Positions 55,410 to 63,851 of a stretch of 64,000 nt of DNA are shown here, one piece after another (the stretch's first letter is position 1; every line of letters starts with the position of its first letter). Under the pieces are notes generated by a model. That model searched no databases and had not been told where the DNA came from. It saw nothing but the letters and a program-made list of their open reading frames with translations. Source of the DNA: Candidatus Latescibacterota bacterium (GTDB taxonomy: Bacteria > Latescibacterota > UBA2968); assembly GCA_965198115.1 (NCBI GenBank), contig OZ240241.1:2368001-2432000 (forward strand), read 5' to 3'. The position numbers and the translations under genes were made by a program.

Positions 55410-56285
55410 ATGCCGCCTATCATTCCTGATCCAACGCACAAGCTGTCGGCTGAACAGCAGTACGAGTTCGACGTCAACGGCTATATCATCCTGAGGAATC
55501 ACTACGATGCGGACACCGTGGCGCAACTTCACGAAGGTATCGACGAACTGCAGGCCATTCCCGTCGACTACGAAACCTACAGGAAGATAGGCGTCGCCAG
55601 CTACTATCTCGCACCAGCGATGAAGGATCCGGCACACGACTTCTGGAACGGCAAACACCCGGAAGCCAGCCAGGAGACTGGAGGCGTCTGGAAGGTTGAA
55701 CACGCGATCTGCGGCACGGACAAATTCGACGTCATTGTACGCGATCCCATCCTCGAGGACATCCACTCAGCCCTCGCCTGGAGCACCCTATTCATCTCCG
55801 CCACCTACTACATCGAGAAGATCGGGCCTGCTCCACCCGGCGGGCTCCACAACGGCGGCTCACCCCCCGACAGACACATCTACTACGCCTACGATCGGGC
55901 GAATCAACAATTCAATTGCTGCAGCACAAAAAGCGTCGTCATTCTTTCCGACATGTCAAAAGTCGAGAACGGCCCTTTCGCAGCCGTACCGGGCAGCCAC
56001 AAGGCGAACTTCGCTTTTCCCTTCGACAAGTCAGATCCCGCGAAGAATCCAATGGCTGTGCCCGTTCTTGCGGAGCCCGGGGATGTGATCATTTTCAGCG
56101 AGGGCATGACACACGGCGCCTATGCCGTGACCAACAACACGGTTCGCCGGTCCGTCTTTTTCTGCTACATGCCCTCCATCAACCGCGACAACCTGCCGCA
56201 CCAGCGCATGTCCATGTATCCCGATCACGTGCTCGATCGTCTCAGCGACATGTCGCACATCCTGACATCTTCCGGATATATCTGA
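55410..56285 (+). CDS. PhyH-fold protein (HNG motif)
   Basis: EQQYEFDVNGY, GLHNGG, GPFAAVPGSHK, PGDVIIFSEGMTHG, RRSVFFCY. Confidence 0.88.
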   Translation: MPPIIPDPTHKLSAEQQYEFDVNGYIILRNHYDADTVAQLHEGIDELQAIPVDYETYRKIGVASYYLAPAMKDPAHDFWNGKHPEASQETGGVWKVEHAICGTDKFDVIVRDPILEDIHSALAWSTLFISATYYIEKIGPAPPGGLHNGGSPPDRHIYYAYDRANQQFNCCSTKSVVILSDMSKVENGPFAAVPGSHKANFAFPFDKSDPAKNPMAVPVLAEPGDVIIFSEGMTHGAYAVTNNTVRRSVFFCYMPSINRDNLPHQRMSMYPDHVLDRLSDMSHILTSSGYI

Positions 56286-56445
56286 TTGTTCCCGGGGACG
56301 GCGCCGTAGCGGCTGCTGGCGCTTCAGGCAGAAAGAGTTCTCTGAGTTTTGCGCTGGAAGAACCTCGAGGTTTCTTCGCTGACAAAGGAAGGGCAGAATT
56401 ACCAATTTAGAAAGGGAAATATCCGGTTAACAAAGCACATTTGAC

Positions 56446-56619
56446 CTAATGGCACACATCAGAACGGTGGTCTTTCGTCCTTCTTTGGGCCGGCCGCCGT
56501 TTTTTTGCCTTCCGCTTCTTCGGCTTGAACCTCGGGGGCGGCTCAGTCGTCAATGCCGTCCGCAATACCTCCACGGGGTCCAGTTCCTGCTTGTCCTTGT
56601 CCTTGTCCTTCTTCTTCAC
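56446..56619 (-). CDS. 57-aa basic small protein inside IS1595
   Basis: GTG with GGTAGG RBS; MKKKDKDKDKQELDPVEVLRTALTTEPPPRFKPKKRKAKKRR... Confidence 0.5.
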   Translation of the reverse strand: MKKKDKDKDKQELDPVEVLRTALTTEPPPRFKPKKRKAKKRRPAQRRTKDHRSDVCH

Positions 56620-56644
56620 TACCTACCCCCGCTCACGGGAAAAG

Positions 56645-56674
56645 TTGACATGAATACAGACATGGTGTTATACT
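56645..56674 (+). promoter_or_regulatory. Near-consensus sigma70 promoter upstream of the HTH ORF and tRNA
   Basis: TTGACA-18 nt-TATACT with extended -10 TG. Confidence 0.65.
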
Positions 56675-56760
56675 CTGGTCAGAGGCTATTCTACAACTCA
56701 ACTCCCCTCTCACATCCCGTAGTCTATTCCGTTCCATGTCCTCACATTTTGAGGTGGACC

Positions 56761-57234
56761 ATGCCTGACGATCCTTTCCTTGAAACTATGCGGGCAGAAG
56801 AGCGCAAGCTGCTTAAACGAGCTGCGATTCTGCGCAAAACCATCTTGGAATATGAAATCGAGAGCAACGGCGAAGCGACGGAACAAAAGGCGCCAACCAA
56901 AAAGCTCAGAGTCCAGCGGCTGAAGAAGCGACAGCTGCCCAAACCATCGGGTTTGAAATCCGTCGATGGTAAACGGACCCTCAGTCCCCTAACCGCTGGA
57001 ATCCTTGCGGCTCTTGAAGAACTGGAACACCCGTCGGCTCTCGCGGTCATTTACGAGGTGCTCAAGAGAAAAGGCGTCTCGATGCTCGGTGACACTGACT
57101 CGGAGAAGCGCGCCAAACTGGCGTCAAGACTCTCGAATCTGAAATATCAGAAAACGCATGTCTATAGGACGGACAAGAAATTGTGGGGCCTCGAAGCGTG
57201 GCGCCACAACGAAAACGGCCCCTCAAACCGATAG
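56761..57234 (+). CDS. Coiled-coil plus winged-helix (HARE-HTH-like) protein, IS passenger
   Basis: GAGGTGG RBS; ILAALEELEHP....IYEVLKRKG....LASRLS......YRTDKKLWGLEAW. Confidence 0.65.
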   Translation: MPDDPFLETMRAEERKLLKRAAILRKTILEYEIESNGEATEQKAPTKKLRVQRLKKRQLPKPSGLKSVDGKRTLSPLTAGILAALEELEHPSALAVIYEVLKRKGVSMLGDTDSEKRAKLASRLSNLKYQKTHVYRTDKKLWGLEAWRHNENGPSNR

Positions 57235-57265
57235 CGCGGTTCAGGAGCCGTTTTCAAACCAGAGC

Positions 57266-57341
57266 GGGAGGGTCGTCTAACTGGTTAGGATAGTCGGGTT
57301 TGCACCGACTGGACTGGGTTCGAGTCCTGGCCCTCCCGCCA
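57266..57341 (+). tRNA. Non-canonical tRNA, anticodon UUG (Gln-like), encoded CCA
   Basis: GGGAGGG/CCCTCCC acceptor, GTCT-AACTGGTTA-GGAT D arm, GTCGG-GTTTGCA-CCGAC anticodon arm, CTGGG-TTCGAGT-CCTGG T arm, GCCA; atypical G32, C37 and A48. Confidence 0.8.
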
Positions 57342-57551
57342 AACACCAACCCTACACGCGAACTGAGAAGCCCACGTAGACATAGAATAACTATCGTGTC
57401 AATCAAAGTCAAGAAAGGATAACCGCCAATGAAATAAAGTACTTATAAAACATGCACTTAGAATCTGAGAATGACGCCCGGCGATCACCTTGAACCCGTC
57501 GCGTGAAGTGAGACGGAACTAAGTCTCAGCTTGAAAGGAGGGTGGTGCCCT

Positions 57552-57662
57552 ATGGCTTGCCGTAAGGTGCGTTCTGGCACGCGGCGTGGCCGGAGGACCG
57601 TCCGGGTTGATGGCCACACGCGTAGGAAGCCCAAGCCCATTCCCGGCCGTAGGTGCCGGTAG
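57552..57662 (+). CDS. 36-aa Arg-rich micropeptide
   Basis: AAAGGAGG RBS; MACRKVRSGTRRGRRTVRVDGHTRRKPKPIPGRRCR. Confidence 0.55.
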   Translation: MACRKVRSGTRRGRRTVRVDGHTRRKPKPIPGRRCR

Positions 57663-57714
57663 TGTAGGCCCGTAGGACAATTCCTGCCGGGCGCCATTCT
57701 CAAAAAAGAGTGAA

Positions 57715-57854
57715 GCACCACCCGGACTGCGTAACCACAACCCTTTCCGATAGGAGGACGACATGAAACACCGGTGTCGTTCACCACCCAGGGTCGTTCG
57801 TTGTAGTCTGAGACACCCGTCAATGTGATCCCTGACAAATGCAGCGGGTGGTGC
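57715..57854. ncRNA. Putative structured RNA domain
   Basis: Closed by a perfect 10-bp helix gcaccacccg/cgggtggtgc, with nested ggactgc/gtagtct, accct/agggt, gacgaca/tgtcgtt and gtca/tgac pairings. Confidence 0.4.
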
Positions 57855-57883
57855 GTCACTTCTTTTTCTTCTTCCTCCGTTTC

Positions 57884-58822
57884 TTAGGCCGCCGCTTTAG
57901 GTCTTGCAAGCATCAGCCTCTTGCCCTCGGATTGCGCAATCGCCAGATCGCGACGCGCACCATCGGAGAGCTTGCGCGTGTTCCACCGGAACGTGGCCTC
58001 GGCCAGATACCGGTGCATGTGGTGACGGCTGTACGAATGATGGATGCCATAGTGCCCGCGTTTGACGAGCGAGATAAAGCACTCGGCTAAGTTCGTCGTG
58101 ACCTTCAGGCCGTCCAACGCTTCGCGCACGTACTGTCCGTCCTTGTGTCGTATGACTTCGTGGCGCTGGCGCTGACTGACCTTTCGATAACCGGACCATT
58201 CGTCGGTAACGACCGTCGCGTCCTTGCGAACGTGACGCTTGATGTTCTCCGTGAGTGTCCTTTGGTCTACCCTGTCAACGTGAGTGGCAACGGCGCGTCC
58301 ATCACGCTCAACGAGGACGGCAACAGGGGACTTCAGTGTATTACGACCGAAGCGCGATTTGTCACCCGTCTTCTGGCTTTGGTGTAGGTTCTTCGCATTG
58401 GCGCCGATGTAGGCTTCATCGCCCTCAACAACACCGCCTAAGTTTCCCACTGTCTGATTCATCGCCCACCTGACACGATGCGCCAAGTGTAGCGCCGTCT
58501 CGTATGATCCCAACCCCAACTCCCTCTGGAGCTGTTTGGCGGAAACGCCCTTCTTGCTACTGCTCATAAGATGAAAGGCCGTCGCCCACTTGCGCAGAGA
58601 AATTTTTGACCGCTCCATTACCGTGTTGACTGTGACCGTGTAACTCTGGCGACAGTCGCCGTTGTTGCACTGAATTAAGCCGGGACGGTGGCTCTTGCCC
58701 TGTAAGCGTGTGAAGTTCATACTGCCACAGTGAGGGCACACCGGGCCATCCGGCCATCTGATTCTCTCAAAGTGCGCTCGGGCTTCTTCTTCGGTCATGC
58801 TGGCGATCTCAAGCAGGGTCAT
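57884..58822 (-). CDS. IS1595-family transposase
   Basis: RWPDGPVCPHC zinc ribbon, KKGVSAKQLQRELG, VEGDEAYIG, TDEWSGY, TTNLAE, RYLAE..FRWN. Confidence 0.95.
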   Translation of the reverse strand: MTLLEIASMTEEEARAHFERIRWPDGPVCPHCGSMNFTRLQGKSHRPGLIQCNNGDCRQSYTVTVNTVMERSKISLRKWATAFHLMSSSKKGVSAKQLQRELGLGSYETALHLAHRVRWAMNQTVGNLGGVVEGDEAYIGANAKNLHQSQKTGDKSRFGRNTLKSPVAVLVERDGRAVATHVDRVDQRTLTENIKRHVRKDATVVTDEWSGYRKVSQRQRHEVIRHKDGQYVREALDGLKVTTNLAECFISLVKRGHYGIHHSYSRHHMHRYLAEATFRWNTRKLSDGARRDLAIAQSEGKRLMLARPKAAA

Positions 58823-58868
58823 TGGTCAGTCTCCGGTTTCGGCGCCTTATTTCTCTGTAACTAACTCT

Positions 58869-58897
58869 AAGATAACTAATTAACCCTGCTTTGTCAA
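58869..58897 (-). promoter_or_regulatory. Transposase promoter with -35 inside the IR
   Basis: TTGACA-17 nt-TATCTT on the minus strand. Confidence 0.55.
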
Positions 58898-59286
58898 CCG
58901 GATACTTCCCTTTAGAAAATTGGAAAGCGGGGATCAGCACCCGTTCGATCCGATGTATGATGCAGAACCGATCACGCTTCACGTAGCTGGATCAGCAGTA
59001 ACGATGGGTTTCGGGCAACCACAAGCGTTGCATAGGCGTGGGCTCCCTCGGGGTCGCATGAAATGGAGAACTCACCGATGTGAGTAGCCCCTCTGGTTCG
59101 ACGCCAGCAGGGGCATTTCTCTTTGGGCATCCGGATCTCGCTGACGACCTGCACCAGGGGCTACAACGCTCTACATCTCGCTTGGAGTTGATCTCTTTGC
59201 GCGATCAAGATACGGAAGGCGACGGATGATGGAGCTCGATGAAATCGGCGGGTCCTCCGTCTGACGTCAGAACAGGAGCAACTGCG

Positions 59287-60644
59287 ATGAAATTATGGAT
59301 GGACGTCATGCGGGACCTGGAGAGCGTGATGAACGATCACGAGCGCATCCTCGATGCCTGGAGTGAAGGCGGCGTGGATAGCGTCGTCTTCGGGCCTCTG
59401 ACGTTCGGCACGTCCAAGCTTTCCAAGGACGCCAGGGCCGCCCCCACGGGTGACGTGGTGGCCGAGGCCTACGACCCCAACCCGGCGATCTACGAGCGTC
59501 TGGGTGTGGAACCGCCGAGGCCGCCCGAGCACAAGCTGCCCCAAAAGCGAGCTCTGCTGGAAAAGACGATGATCGCCGCCAAGGATCGAGGCATGCAGGT
59601 CTATTGCATGTACGCCGATGGCCCAGGCGGCGACGGACACCACCTGCACGACGACAGACGCTGGCCTCACGCGTGGCGCGTATGGTAGACACCCTCGAGC
59701 ACTTTCCAATGGCCGACGGCGCCGTCATGGACGAGCCCGAATAGGGCTACGAGATGGCGCCCCACCACATGAACCACCGCTCCTATTTCTTCGACGATCT
59801 GCCCGAGTCGGTAGCGCCTCTCGCGAAGGACCTGGGCTACGATTACCCGGCCATGGTGGCCGCCGGGGAACGACTGCTGGACCTGTTCCACAACCTCGAT
59901 CCCGCACGCATTCGCGCCCACGCCCGCGGCGGCCTCGTGGGTGCCCATCGCATGCTCGGCGCCGACCCCGACCTGATGGCGTGGTTGTCCTTCCGCGTCG
60001 ACTCGCTGACCCGCTACTACCGGCGCATCCGCGAGGGTGTGGCGGCCGAACTCGACCGTCCGATACGACTCGGCTGTGGACCGCGATCGGCGGCCTTCGC
60101 CCCATTGTGCGGCTACGACTTCGTCGAACTGGCGCAATTCATGGATTTCCTGCTGCCCAAGCACTACTTCTTCCATCGCGGCTTCGACGGCTTCGTAGGC
60201 ACGGTCTACCGCTACTCGCAGACGCTCATCGAGTGGAACCCCGGCCTGACGGTGGCCGACACGCTCGAAGTCGTGCAGTCGCTGTTCGGCATCATCCTGC
60301 CCGGCGTCGAGGACAGGCTCGACTTCGAGAGTGCCCTGACACCCGAGTTCTTCGAGCAGGTCGTCACCCAGGAGACCCGCCGCGCTCTCGCCGCCGTCGA
60401 CGACCCGGAGCGTATCGTGCCCTGGCTCGACACCGGCCGCTTCCCACACGATGGCGACCCCATGTCGTCACGCGACCTGAAGATGCTGCTGGATGCGGCC
60501 GAAGACGCGGGCCTGAAGCGCTTCAACTACCACCACCAGGGCAACCTGAGCGCCGGCGAGTGGGTGGTGATCAGCGACAAGTGCGGCACGCGCTGGGACC
60601 CACGCACCAGCGACTGGGAGCCCACCGACGACCTGGTGCTGTAG
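59287..60644 (+). pseudogene. Hypothetical protein (possible TIM-barrel), frameshifts and in-frame TAG at 59742-59744
   Basis: ORFs 59287-59688 and 59754-60644 join via ..DTLEHFPMADGAVMDEPE*GYEMAP. Confidence 0.65.
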
Positions 60645-60717: not shown

Positions 60718-61649
60718 ATGCAGCAGCGATTCACGAGGACACCGTACTACACCGGGCCCGATGATCCGGAGATCGGTGAAGTCAGGGGGCCGCTCCAACT
60801 CGGCGAGACGGTGATCATCGAAACAGTCGGCGGGCACGACCAGGATTACGAGAACAACCACGAGCATCGCGCCGGCGCGGTAATGGAGGTGAAGGAGCCG
60901 CGCTTCTCCAGACCCGGGGGACCGTTCTTCATCGAGGGCATCGAGCCGGGGGACTGGGTGTCGCTCGAGATCGCCGATATCGAGCCCGGACCGTATGGTT
61001 TCTATCGCAACGGCGGTCCTCACTGGGGGAGTCTACGGCTGGTGGCACCGGTTCGGGATGGCCTCGTCCACTTTCCGCCGGACTTCGTCGTGCCCGTGCG
61101 GCCGATGATCGGCTACATCACACTCGAATCCGTGGCGCCTCACCAGATCGATCACGGCGGCAACACGGACTTCAACTCCTATCAGGCCGGCAGCACGGTT
61201 CACATCAGGGCACAGAAGCCGGGTGGGCTGCTGACGTTGACAGACGTCCACGCCCGCATGGGAGACGGTGAGCTCACCGCCACGGGTGTGGAGATCGATT
61301 CGGCCGTCACCCTCAAGGTCGACCGCTCACGTGGGTTTCCCTGCAGCAGTCCAGTGGTCGAGAAAACGAGGCACGTCGAGGGGTCAGAGGAGTGGCTGAC
61401 CAGCGGCCGCGGGGCCGGGTGGGAGGAAGCGGTGAAGATCGCCTGGTCGGAGATGGTCGCCCTGATCGCCGACGAGTACGACACCACGGCGGAGTTCGCC
61501 AATCTCATCGTCGGCACGATCGCCGATGCGCGACCCGGATACAGTGCTGGCGCATTGAACCAGCGCGGGCAAAGCGGGAGCCAGTACATGACCTGTCAGC
61601 TGGCCGTCACCAAGGGCTGCACCGCACCGGGGAGCCATACACCGACTGA
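60718..61649 (+). CDS. Acetamidase/formamidase family (frameshift in last codons)
   Basis: GPFFIEGIEPGD, PVRPMIG, HGGNTD, DVHARMGDGEL..TGVE. Confidence 0.88.
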
Positions 61650-61662
61650 GATCAGGCTGGAG

Positions 61663-63851
61663 TCAAGCTTCCGTGTCCACCGTCTCCGGCTGCAAGGCCC
61701 CCCCTGGCCGAAAATCAGAGAAAACGCCTTCCCCTCATCGCTTCTCGTCCGGCCGTCCAGGTAGCTGATGCTGATGGCGCGGCGAGGTTTATCGGTCGGG
61801 TTGACCGCAGAGGTGTGCAGCATTCTGTTGTGCAGGAGGATGGCCTGGCCTGCCGGACACTCCAGAGTTTCCGGTGTGTGTGTGGCAAGCACATCCACAA
61901 CCTTTTTTTGAACAAGGACGTCGTCATTCGGAAATAGATGTTGGGTTCCCGGCAGGACTTTGAGGCAGCCATTGGTGCTGGTCGCATCGTCCAGGGCCAT
62001 CCAGACGGCGGCTTCTGGCGGCCGATCCAACCCGGCGTAGAGATCCCAGTGCCAAGGTAGGACTGTGCCTTGCCGAGCCGGTTTGTTCATGAACATCGCC
62101 CAATAGATTGTGATCGGAACGTCCTTGCCATACGCCCGTTGGCAGACGTGGTGGAAGAGGGGTTTCTGCATATAGGCCAGGTAGAGCGGATCGAATTCGA
62201 GCCCCGTGATTTTGCGATAGGCCCGCGTCGCGCCTTTGTGACCGAGGGTCTGGGGGTCCATGTCTTTGTAAAGCCCGCGGTTGTCTGGACACTCGGGTGA
62301 GTGTATTCAGGCGGCCTTTCGAGTTGCCGTGAGTGCGTTTCTAGCCTGTTCGGGCGTCTTGTAGCCGTGACGTTCGATGATCCACCTGTGGTTGTATCTG
62401 TCCCGAAACTCAAGGAGTGCGAGGCGCAGGTCTTCGATGGTACTGAAGTGTCTAACCCACAGGAGGTTTTCTTTGAGGGTACGGATGAACCGCTCGGCGC
62501 ATCCGTTGCCTTCTGGCTCACGCACGAAACTCGGCGATGTTTGGACGCCGAGGAATGCGATCTCGTTCTGGAAGTCGTCAGAGACGTATTGTGACCCGTG
62601 ATCGTGTCGGAGCTCCAGTCCTTCGGCGATGTTTTCTTCGAAGCCCCCGAAGTGTTCACGGATGCCCTGTCGGATCGGCTCGAGAGCCTCAAAGCGGTTG
62701 GCCGTCTTGGAGGCGTGAATGCCCACACACTCGCACGTGCAGTGGTCGATCGCGATAAACACGGAGGCTCTGCCCTCGTCGACCGTGGGCGTCACAGTCA
62801 GGTCGGTGCCCCACATCTGATCGGGCTTCTCGGTCGTAATCGTGCCATCGTGGGCTCGTCGTTCGCGACGCCGTCCTGGACGCGCCTGGAGCCCGTTTTC
62901 ACGCATCAACCGGCGGACCCGATCCTTTGACGTCCGCATACCGTGAAAGCGAAGCCTGGCCCAGATCTTGCAGTATCCTTCGCCGTGGAAGGGTGACGCG
63001 TCGATCTCCTGCTGAATGAGGGAGACCAATTCCTCATCGGTACCCGCTCCGACCGGGCCTCGCTTCCGGGGTTGCCGAAGATCGGTTACGGATGAACGAC
63101 GAAGCTGGCTGTGCACCGTGGAACGGGGTATCTGCAACACTTTGCACACGCGTTTAATGCTGTAGCGTCTCCCCGTGGAGGGCGAAAGGACCTCACTCAT
63201 TTCCGCGACCTCCGATGCGCCAAAGGGCGGCGGGCTTCCAGACGATCGATTCTTTGTTGCAGCAGCTCGTTGTCCATCGTGAGCTCGCCAATCTTCGCCT
63301 GGAGGTCCTTGACCCTCTCGTCACGCTCGTCGCTCGGACGAGAGCGTAGTGCGGCCTGGGCGCCAGAGTGGAACTGATCGCGCCACTCGCTCAATTTAGC
63401 TGCCGTTACTCCCAGATCGCGAGAGACGCTGTCGAGGCTCTCGCCACGCATCACACGTAATACGGCTTCGGCCTTCTTCTTCACGGAGAAACGACCCTGC
63501 GAAGTCGCGCTTGGATCGGCTGGGCCTCCGCTCGCTCTCGCTCGCTCCGCCCCAACCGATCCCCTAGTAGCCTTGTTCATGGTGGACCCTCCTTTTCGAC
63601 CTACTGTAGGTCAACGGAGTGTCCAAGAAAACCCCGGGGCGCTGGAGGGGGTCCATGTCTTTGTACTGACCGGTTGATGTATCCAGCTGCATCATCATGC
63701 GTTCATACGGCACGTCTGCCTTGCCGAGCATGATTTCGTCGATGCGAAGCCGTAAGCCTTCGAGTTCTTCATCGGTAACCACTCGGCCCAGTCTTACATA
63801 ACCCTTTTCCTCAAACGTCTGCCACTGTGCTTCGCTGATGGTTTCCTGCAC
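61663..63851 (-). pseudogene. PhyH-family dioxygenase interrupted by an IS3-like element
   Basis: FEEKGYVRLG...GQYKDMDP|QTLGHKG..., LPWHWD, NGCLKVLPGTQH, LHTS.VN...PRR. Confidence 0.88.
62267..63646 (-). mobile_element. Two-ORF IS3-like element (orfA 63197-63580, orfB 62307-63200) with a 15-19 bp direct repeat
   Basis: HTH orfA, rve DDE orfB (WGTD, RHDHGSQY, GNGCAERF.RTLKE); IRs share gccc..ggtt.tct.ggacact; gggggtccatgtctttgta at 62252-62270 and 63647-63665. Confidence 0.92.

Follow-up and report, generated by a model that had tools for sequence, protein, structure and literature searches.

The 64,000-nt window, the whole stretch of DNA that was analysed, carries a tRNA-shaped gene at 57266-57341 as a passenger of an intact, 2,497-bp IS1595 element (56414-58910). 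Judged by sequence, its RNA is a Glu/Gln chimera that is missing key identity elements of both tRNAs. The feature is real and belongs with the irregular, mobile-element-linked tRNAs and with the passenger-carrying IS1595 elements. The reading favoured here, tentatively and at somewhat less than even confidence, is that the RNA would be poorly charged, would rarely decode and would act by its shape, as a processing mark within the transposon.

A complete cloverleaf with an irregular decoding loop

The gene is a 76-nt, 7/5 cloverleaf. ARAGORN labels it tRNA-Gln(TTG), and Rfam RF00005 scores 42.1 bits, above the gathering score of 29, in a search of 3 kb; a search of the whole window at the gathering threshold did not pick it up. 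The initial annotation, which had described a cloverleaf with encoded CCA and G73 in which all stems pair, is borne out, as 21/21 pairs form and four of them are G-U wobbles (10-25, 13-22, 50-64, and 51-63). The anticodon loop is as odd as was claimed. It reads GUUUGCA (G32-U33-UUG-C37-A38), and G32 and C37 each occur once among the 66 CCA-ending ARAGORN calls in the host, both times in this gene. Positions 15 and 48 are indeed both A, which breaks the Levitt pair. The upstream GC said to be able to pair with G73-C74 is present but not special, since it also precedes 3 of the 13 other host G73 tRNAs, and an extended acceptor helix was rejected as a distinguishing trait.

An ordinary tRNA-Gln with odd bases arising from assembly errors would have accounted for the loop, and the first reading had used a single assembly. 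However, Logan contigs of runs X1 and X2 have no differing letters across 56228-59500, although these runs represent one sample that is possibly the assembly's own source. A contig of run X3, from a second sample of the same study, likewise has no differing letters across 57200-57410, which includes the tRNA. Because the contigs of all three runs carry identical letters, an error of assembly can be dismissed to the extent that contigs allow, and this explanation has practically no probability left.

The host has ordinary Gln tRNA genes, two Gln(UUG) and one Gln(CUG). Its chromosome also contains an array of 20 divergent tRNA genes (G000:C1:2870558-2872531). Separately, G000:C1:855800-855927 and 429270-429397 (minus strand) are near-identical segments that end in the 3' part of the host tRNA(CAU) at 3490617, like attachment-site copies; the former lies 1.5 kb from a broken IS1595.

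The IS1595 element

The element has the defining features of IS1595, namely the Zn_Tnp_IS1595 and DDE_Tnp_IS1595 domains, terminal repeats that match at 22/24 positions and a perfect 8-bp duplication (Table 1). Its order is a small lysine-rich ORF on the minus strand, a promoter, a 157-aa ORF, a hairpin, the tRNA, two folded domains and the convergent transposase. It is present as a single copy in the host genome and was not found in 40 relatives. The insertion target (56399-56413 / 58911-58925) is AT-rich and part-palindromic around the duplicated 8 bp, with a PhyH gene just upstream. Elsewhere in the window, a two-ORF IS3-like element (62307-63580, minus strand; rve, rve_3, HTH_21) splits, by eye, a PhyH-like gene into 63564-63851 and 61596-62261.

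The closest transposases by identity are P0003 (74%), P0004 (65%), and P0005 (64%). In searches of four other groups (904 genomes), no match for the closest transposases exceeded 56% identity to its query, and a search of genome contigs with the transposase returned only 12 loci, all distant. The transposase tree leaves the close kin of the query unresolved, with a support of 0.48 two nodes up.

Table 1. Features of the IS1595 element in the window, followed by tRNA-shaped RNAs at related loci (L numbers denote fetched loci, with positions within the locus)
Feature	Position	Strand	Remarks
Left target-site duplication	56406..56413	.	8 bp, TTTAGAAA, identical to 58911-58918
Left terminal inverted repeat	56414..56437	+	22/24 match to right repeat; starts GG
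Small lysine-rich ORF, 57 aa	56446..56619	-	No Pfam family
Sigma70-like promoter facing cargo	56645..56674	+	11/12 with TG extension; consensus match only
Orphan ORF, 157 aa	56761..57234	+	Long N-terminal helix and three C-terminal helices
Hairpin across stop of 157-aa ORF	57211..57255	.	Terminator-like call on minus strand only
Irregular Glu/Gln-type tRNA	57266..57341	+	G1-C72, G73, Glu-type D arm, 4-nt variable loop, A15/A48, encoded CCA
Weak sigma70-like promoter	57384..57412	-	9/12, pointing back over tRNA; lead only
Multibranch structured region, 237 nt	57466..57702	+ (as listed; strand not established)	17-bp closing helix; z -3.9, 0/200 shuffles
Long hairpin domain, 166 nt	57702..57867	+	Ends 17 nt before transposase stop; z -4.9, 0/200 shuffles
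IS1595-family transposase, 312 aa, intact	57884..58822	-	PF12762 E 2.7e-36; PF12760 E 7.7e-14
Transposase promoter, sigma70-like	58869..58897	-	10/12; starts inside right repeat
Right terminal inverted repeat	58887..58910	-	22/24 match to left repeat
Right target-site duplication	58911..58918	.	Identical to left 8-bp copy
Leu-type body, UGG	L105, L106, L126, L138, L161, L163, L173, L175, L177, L182, L184, L187, L206, L212, L275, L277, L278, L308, L312, L322, L323, L328, L330, L332, L335		In or beside IS1595
Leu-type body, AGG	L102, L167		In or beside IS1595
tmRNA-end-only minis	L005:2607-2678, L014:1318-1388, L034:1048-1118, L236:2572-2642		65-73 nt, G3-U70, A73
Further tmRNA-end-like minis	L271, L272, L274, L323, L328		65-73 nt, G3-U70, A73
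Mismatched or scrambled tRNAs	L303:1233-1307, L285:2770-2846, L332:2648-2723, L050:3037-3124, L191:6273-6348, L013:2455-2530, L099:3190-3301		Near IS1595 transposases

Identity elements and predicted charging

The identity elements were judged by sequence against the table in PMC9976931. From the GlnRS set listed there, the RNA has G73, G2-C71, G3-C70, G10, and U34-U35-G36, and it is missing U1-A72, A37, and U38, in place of which it has G1-C72, C37, and A38. From the GluRS set, it has G1-C72, U34-U35, a Glu-type D arm and no nucleotide 47, and it is missing U2-A71, C36, and A37, which are replaced by G2-C71, G36, and C37. The two Gln tRNA genes that lie on the host chromosome but not in its tRNA array start with U1. 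The D arm matches 11 viral loci, several of which are near-identical to each other; ARAGORN calls eight of these Glu, one His and one Leu, and one is uncalled.

The host encodes GlnRS, one GluRS and GatB. Its GluRS has an Arg aligned with the Arg of the E. coli enzyme, at a position where T. elongatus has Gly; Arg at this position rejects G36. By this alignment, the host GluRS looks discriminating. Both GlnRS and GluRS read the anticodon loop, as set out in the relevant part of PMC9976931. The identity mismatches and the host GluRS residue together suggest that charging by either enzyme would be weak.

tRNA-shaped RNAs in related IS1595 elements

Related elements were gathered by their transposases and scanned with a stem-and-CCA detector and ARAGORN. 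The repeat pair was found in 102 of the 217 distinct loci, and these constitute the delimited elements. Ten of them contain 11 tRNA-shaped RNAs, all irregular (10 in nine elements when the query is left aside). Three classes are represented: Leu bodies with Pro anticodons, tmRNA-end-only minis, and bodies with a short arm and a scrambled loop. The interiors of the elements minus the transposase (188 kb) thus hold 11 irregular RNAs, versus two ordinary tRNAs in 304 kb of flanks, and the background of the detector is two non-ARAGORN matches in 3 Mb of host DNA. The retained acceptor stem and T arm of the sister RNAs are partly built in, because the detector requires both. Given short contigs and 1.5-kb flanks, the cargo counts are lower bounds, and the kin are also non-independent.

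A further 70 loci, a few of them repeats of earlier ones, were scanned and added more cases. In total, 41 loci were labelled by hand and their body types assigned by eye; many lack the repeat pair, which leaves a position inside the element unproven for those, and duplications were present in 13/16 tested. Leu-type bodies with UGG occur at 25 labelled loci, Leu-type bodies with AGG at two, and tmRNA-end-like minis at nine, with some loci holding two kinds. Single cases make up the rest: Leu/UUA and Leu/CGA, U73 bodies carrying Ser anticodons, and Arg-type bodies whose loops are broken. The mismatched or scrambled set in Table 1 comprises the U73 bodies with Ser anticodons, Leu/CGA, the Arg-type bodies with odd loops and one long loop insertion. 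The RNA at 57266-57341 is the only Glu/Gln-type member among the 41 loci.

It also falls outside the Leu-body and mini classes. The four tmRNA-end minis that were tested all match the tmRNA model, below its gathering score. These minis have G3-U70, A73 and no D stem, whereas the query has G3-C70, G73, a full D stem and tRNA as its best model. The Leu-body/Pro-anticodon class is marked by a long variable arm, A73 and a codon match, whereas the query has a short arm, G73 and no match. One locus combines two kinds of RNA: L272 carries a Leu-type body with a UUA (ochre) anticodon (1166-1252) followed by a tmRNA-end-like mini, and its transposase ends in TAG.

The layout of the query (small ORF, inward ORF, tRNA shape, convergent transposase) recurs at L005 and at L034, the latter in the host itself. 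At L005, a tmRNA-end-only mini is accompanied by an Arg-type body whose arm is distorted; L034 has only a mini. The L005 mini overlaps the last codons and the stop of the ORF, and the L034 mini begins 5 nt past the ORF stop. In tandem arrangements, a Leu/UGG tRNA is preceded at 2-5 nt by a mini in L323 and L328 and by a scrambled-loop U73 body in L332; hence, different shapes fill one slot. Across the sister elements, the RNAs lie upstream or downstream of the transposase and on either strand, and a single role in cis is therefore not universal. Irregular loops also occur in the Leu/UGG class, where 3 of the 25 tRNAs have G32, five lack U33 and one (L177) has both G32 and C37.

Codon matches between cargo tRNAs and transposases

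A recoding tRNA was among the roles first suggested for this gene, and the commonest class of sister RNAs fits that idea. Leu/UGG elements have CCA at two transposase columns, accounting for 11/12 and 11/11 of the Pro codons there, versus 11/34 and 7/49 at the same columns in other elements and 12% elsewhere. Eleven fresh elements point in the same direction without reaching significance per column, with CCA in 8/10 versus 9/20 (p 0.12) and 7/8 versus 6/12 (p 0.16). The L177 transposase retains both CCA codons despite the G32/C37 loop of its tRNA; such a loop therefore need not mean that decoding is lost.

The query element, however, shows no codon match. CAA accounts for 3/13 Gln codons of its transposase, which equals the host's 23%, and neither CAA enrichment nor a fixed-site CAA/CAG match was found there. 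At residue 230, where 211/258 transposases have Glu, the query has Gln (CAG), but this Glu-to-Gln change was rejected as a recoding site. It is non-specific, occurring in 13/258 transposases of which eight are without a detected tRNA, and some such Glu-to-Gln change is found in 28/258. For the tRNAs of the Cys, Arg, and UUA types, likewise, no matching change was detected at conserved positions of the transposase.

These comparisons bear on whether the query is an attenuated decoder or mistranslator, with weak Gln or Glu charging and low-rate reading of CAA/CAG that is tuned down by G32 and C37. It retains U33, UUG, G73, G2-C71, G3-C70, and G10, its D arm resembles those of phage tRNAs that are mostly called Glu, and irregular loops also turn up in the Leu/UGG class, whose transposases keep their CCA codons. 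Yet the absence of a codon match, the non-specific change at residue 230, the non-significant result on fresh loci and the dependence of GlnRS and a seemingly discriminating GluRS on the anticodon loop make this role quite unlikely.

Neighbouring ORFs, promoters and structured RNAs

Short ORFs similar by eye to the small lysine-rich ORF lie at the same element end in L005 (3254-3454) and L034 (371-529). This ORF, near the element end opposite the transposase, apparently recurs as an accessory gene in this IS group. The 157-aa ORF is without homologs and without a Pfam or PHROG family in the searches run, and a fold search with its low-confidence model (pLDDT 56) gave no match. Its third Atlas hit (0.91) belongs to a cluster with 11% HARE-HTH, and the modelled product is possibly a winged-helix DNA binder.

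No sense promoter was detected within 150 nt upstream of the tRNA. On the minus strand, the weak promoter (57412-57384) and a terminator-like hairpin (57230-57206) could bracket an antisense RNA of ~170 nt that spans the tRNA. An antisense promoter as a general trait was rejected: such matches occur at 9/38 loci versus ~3 expected, and since sense-strand matches are equally frequent (9/38), the antisense promoter is a lead only.

Downstream of the tRNA, the multibranch region at 57466-57702 contains repeated GUAG/GUAA-capped hairpins and yielded no Rfam family and no homolog. The hairpin domain that follows (57702-57867) contains a Shine-Dalgarno sequence and a 21-codon ORF (57763-57828). It resembles L034:1238-1410 in placement, closing helix, Shine-Dalgarno and a short RCR[SG]PP ORF, a likeness of two sequences only, and a profile of the two found no third member in the fetched IS loci. 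The motif is like the RAPP/RGPP arrest motifs. Short RxPP ORFs were rejected as a general trait, as they are not enriched inside elements (7/602) relative to outside (4/675).

Maintenance or decay

Homologs of the tRNA or of the two RNA domains were found neither in 40 relatives nor in plasmids and phages, and three viral pattern scans gave none. The 168 genomes of the phylum gave only eight short, weak matches. About 280 fetched IS loci contain no tRNA with the same loop and no homolog of either RNA domain. In addition, runs X1 and X2 contain a 370-nt contig that aligns to 56420-56445, 57206-57258, and 57331-57413 and represents a deleted, MITE-like derivative of the element, absent from this assembly. 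It keeps the repeat, the hairpin, both acceptor strands and the CCA, and has lost the ORFs, the anticodon arm and the T arm. This derivative shows that the tRNA module travels with the element and can decay.

The missing same-loop homologs and the decayed copy in the same sample favour a relic, that is, a once-functional, element-borne tRNA with a Glu-type D arm that drifted at positions 32, 36-38, and 48 and is now carried along with no function. The lack of a codon match in the transposase is in line with this, and a transposon-overlapping allo-tRNA pseudogene is described in the 2017 report by Mukai et al. (PMC5389517). In random-change trials, stems and core were left intact in 8.5% with three changes, 3.8% with four, 1.7% with five and 0.16% with eight. 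Chance retention is thus conceivable if only three changes separate the gene from its ancestor, and far less so at five to eight. All 21 pairs and 13 core positions, including the CCA, are preserved, nothing in the element itself is broken and its duplication is perfect, and cargo RNAs of this kind regularly have irregular loops. A relic is accordingly rather unlikely, although it qualifies the original proposal of selection for shape rather than decoding. The context fits that proposal, since the gene is IS1595 cargo and sister RNAs, some without a normal anticodon arm, fill the same slot; the relic reading stays alongside it.

Proposed role as a processing mark

In the favoured, by-shape reading, read-through transcription from the promoter at 56645 would pass the hairpin and enter the tRNA. 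RNase P relies on the acceptor stem, the T arm and the CCA, and this enzyme and the other host tRNA-processing enzymes would excise the cloverleaf. Little of the product would be charged by the host GlnRS or GluRS, and codon reading is predicted to be rare. Excision would set the 3' end of the message for the upstream 157-aa ORF and would release the downstream structured RNA, which extends toward the stop codon of the transposase gene, with possible effects on the element's own genes.

This reading is favoured by the intact element with its perfect 8-bp duplication and by the finding that related elements have unrelated tRNA shapes in this slot. The Gln/Glu identity mismatches together with the lack of a codon match, and the ordinary Gln tRNAs already present in the host, point the same way. 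Transcription may end at the hairpin that precedes the tRNA, which would count against this reading, as do the lack of a sense promoter within 150 nt upstream, the varied positions of the sister RNAs, the retained CCA codons of L177 and the deleted copy without anticodon and T arms in the same sample. The earlier suggestion of a processing signal for the flanking RNAs agrees with the cargo context and the shared slot, and the processing itself is a predicted step.

A decoy or resistant stand-in was also suggested. Such an RNA would soak up or escape anticodon nucleases and tRNA-targeting toxins, to the benefit of the host. Evasion of these enzymes has been proposed for altered-loop phage tRNAs (PMC10264068), and toxin-antitoxin genes lie near irregular tRNAs in PMC5389517. 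Here, however, the idea is without direct support. Pfam and PHROG searches of the element turned up no toxin or antitoxin family, loops vary between elements, and a scrambled loop would neither bait loop-reading nucleases well nor serve well as a substitute for decoding. A decoy is therefore very improbable.

Relation to known systems

Several known systems resemble the query in part. The allo-tRNAs are described as 8/4 or 9/3 molecules with a long variable arm (PMC5389517; PMC7609411), whereas the query is 7/5 with a 4-nt variable loop. In these accounts, Mukai et al. suggested that irregular tRNAs are tied to transposons and to toxin-antitoxin systems. The portions considered here mention neither an IS family nor a member of the Glu/Gln type, whereas the query lies between defined IS1595 ends.

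The IS1595 transporter elements (MTnSag1/tISSag10, tISCpe8) share with the query the Zn-ribbon and DDE transposase, repeats of ~25 bp, an 8-bp duplication and passenger cargo (PMC5704250; PMC8101967). The passengers named in the relevant parts of these sources are protein genes, whereas the query also carries a tRNA shape and two structured RNA domains.

The tRNA-ProX of Streptomyces and Kitasatospora (PMC10404621) is, like the query, a natural bacterial tRNA with a mismatch between identity and anticodon. However, tRNA-ProX has Pro identity and an adjoining ProRSx gene, as described in the part of that source considered, and the query has no Pro identity and no synthetase within 56414-58910; mistranslation is only putative.

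The favoured explanation likens the query to mascRNA-type processing marks, cloverleafs that are cut by tRNA enzymes and have no conserved anticodon loop and no aminoacylation, according to the corresponding section of PMC9976931. In contrast to mascRNA, which is the end of a eukaryotic lncRNA, the query has a full D arm and a 7-nt loop and had no mascRNA match among those listed in the Rfam search. No paper on tRNA cargo of IS1595 was found in a search that left most subscription journals outside its reach, and the supplements of Mukai 2017 may hold such loci.

Implications

A broader proposal, possible but doubtful, is that IS1595 elements carry an interchangeable toolkit of tRNA shapes, comprising Leu/Pro tRNAs that mis-charge, tmRNA-end-only minis, and types with a locked loop (Glu/Gln, Arg, and Cys). 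These shapes would plug into host tRNA processing, charging and ribosome rescue and control the elements' own genes. The query would then be a maintained Glu/Gln-type member that processes the transposase-facing structured RNA.

To our knowledge, insertion sequences carry a transposase and at most a few protein passengers. A tRNA-shaped RNA, in no case an ordinary one, is present in about one in ten of the delimited elements of this group (10/102). Annotation of genomes places such genes among the normal tRNAs, as with the gene at 57266-57341, which is counted as Gln. The 2.5-kb cassette is small enough to be tested whole in E. coli. If these RNAs are maintained, small transposons would tap the tRNA machinery of their hosts, and the irregular tRNAs whose tie to mobile elements Mukai et al. 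only guessed would have a concrete home.
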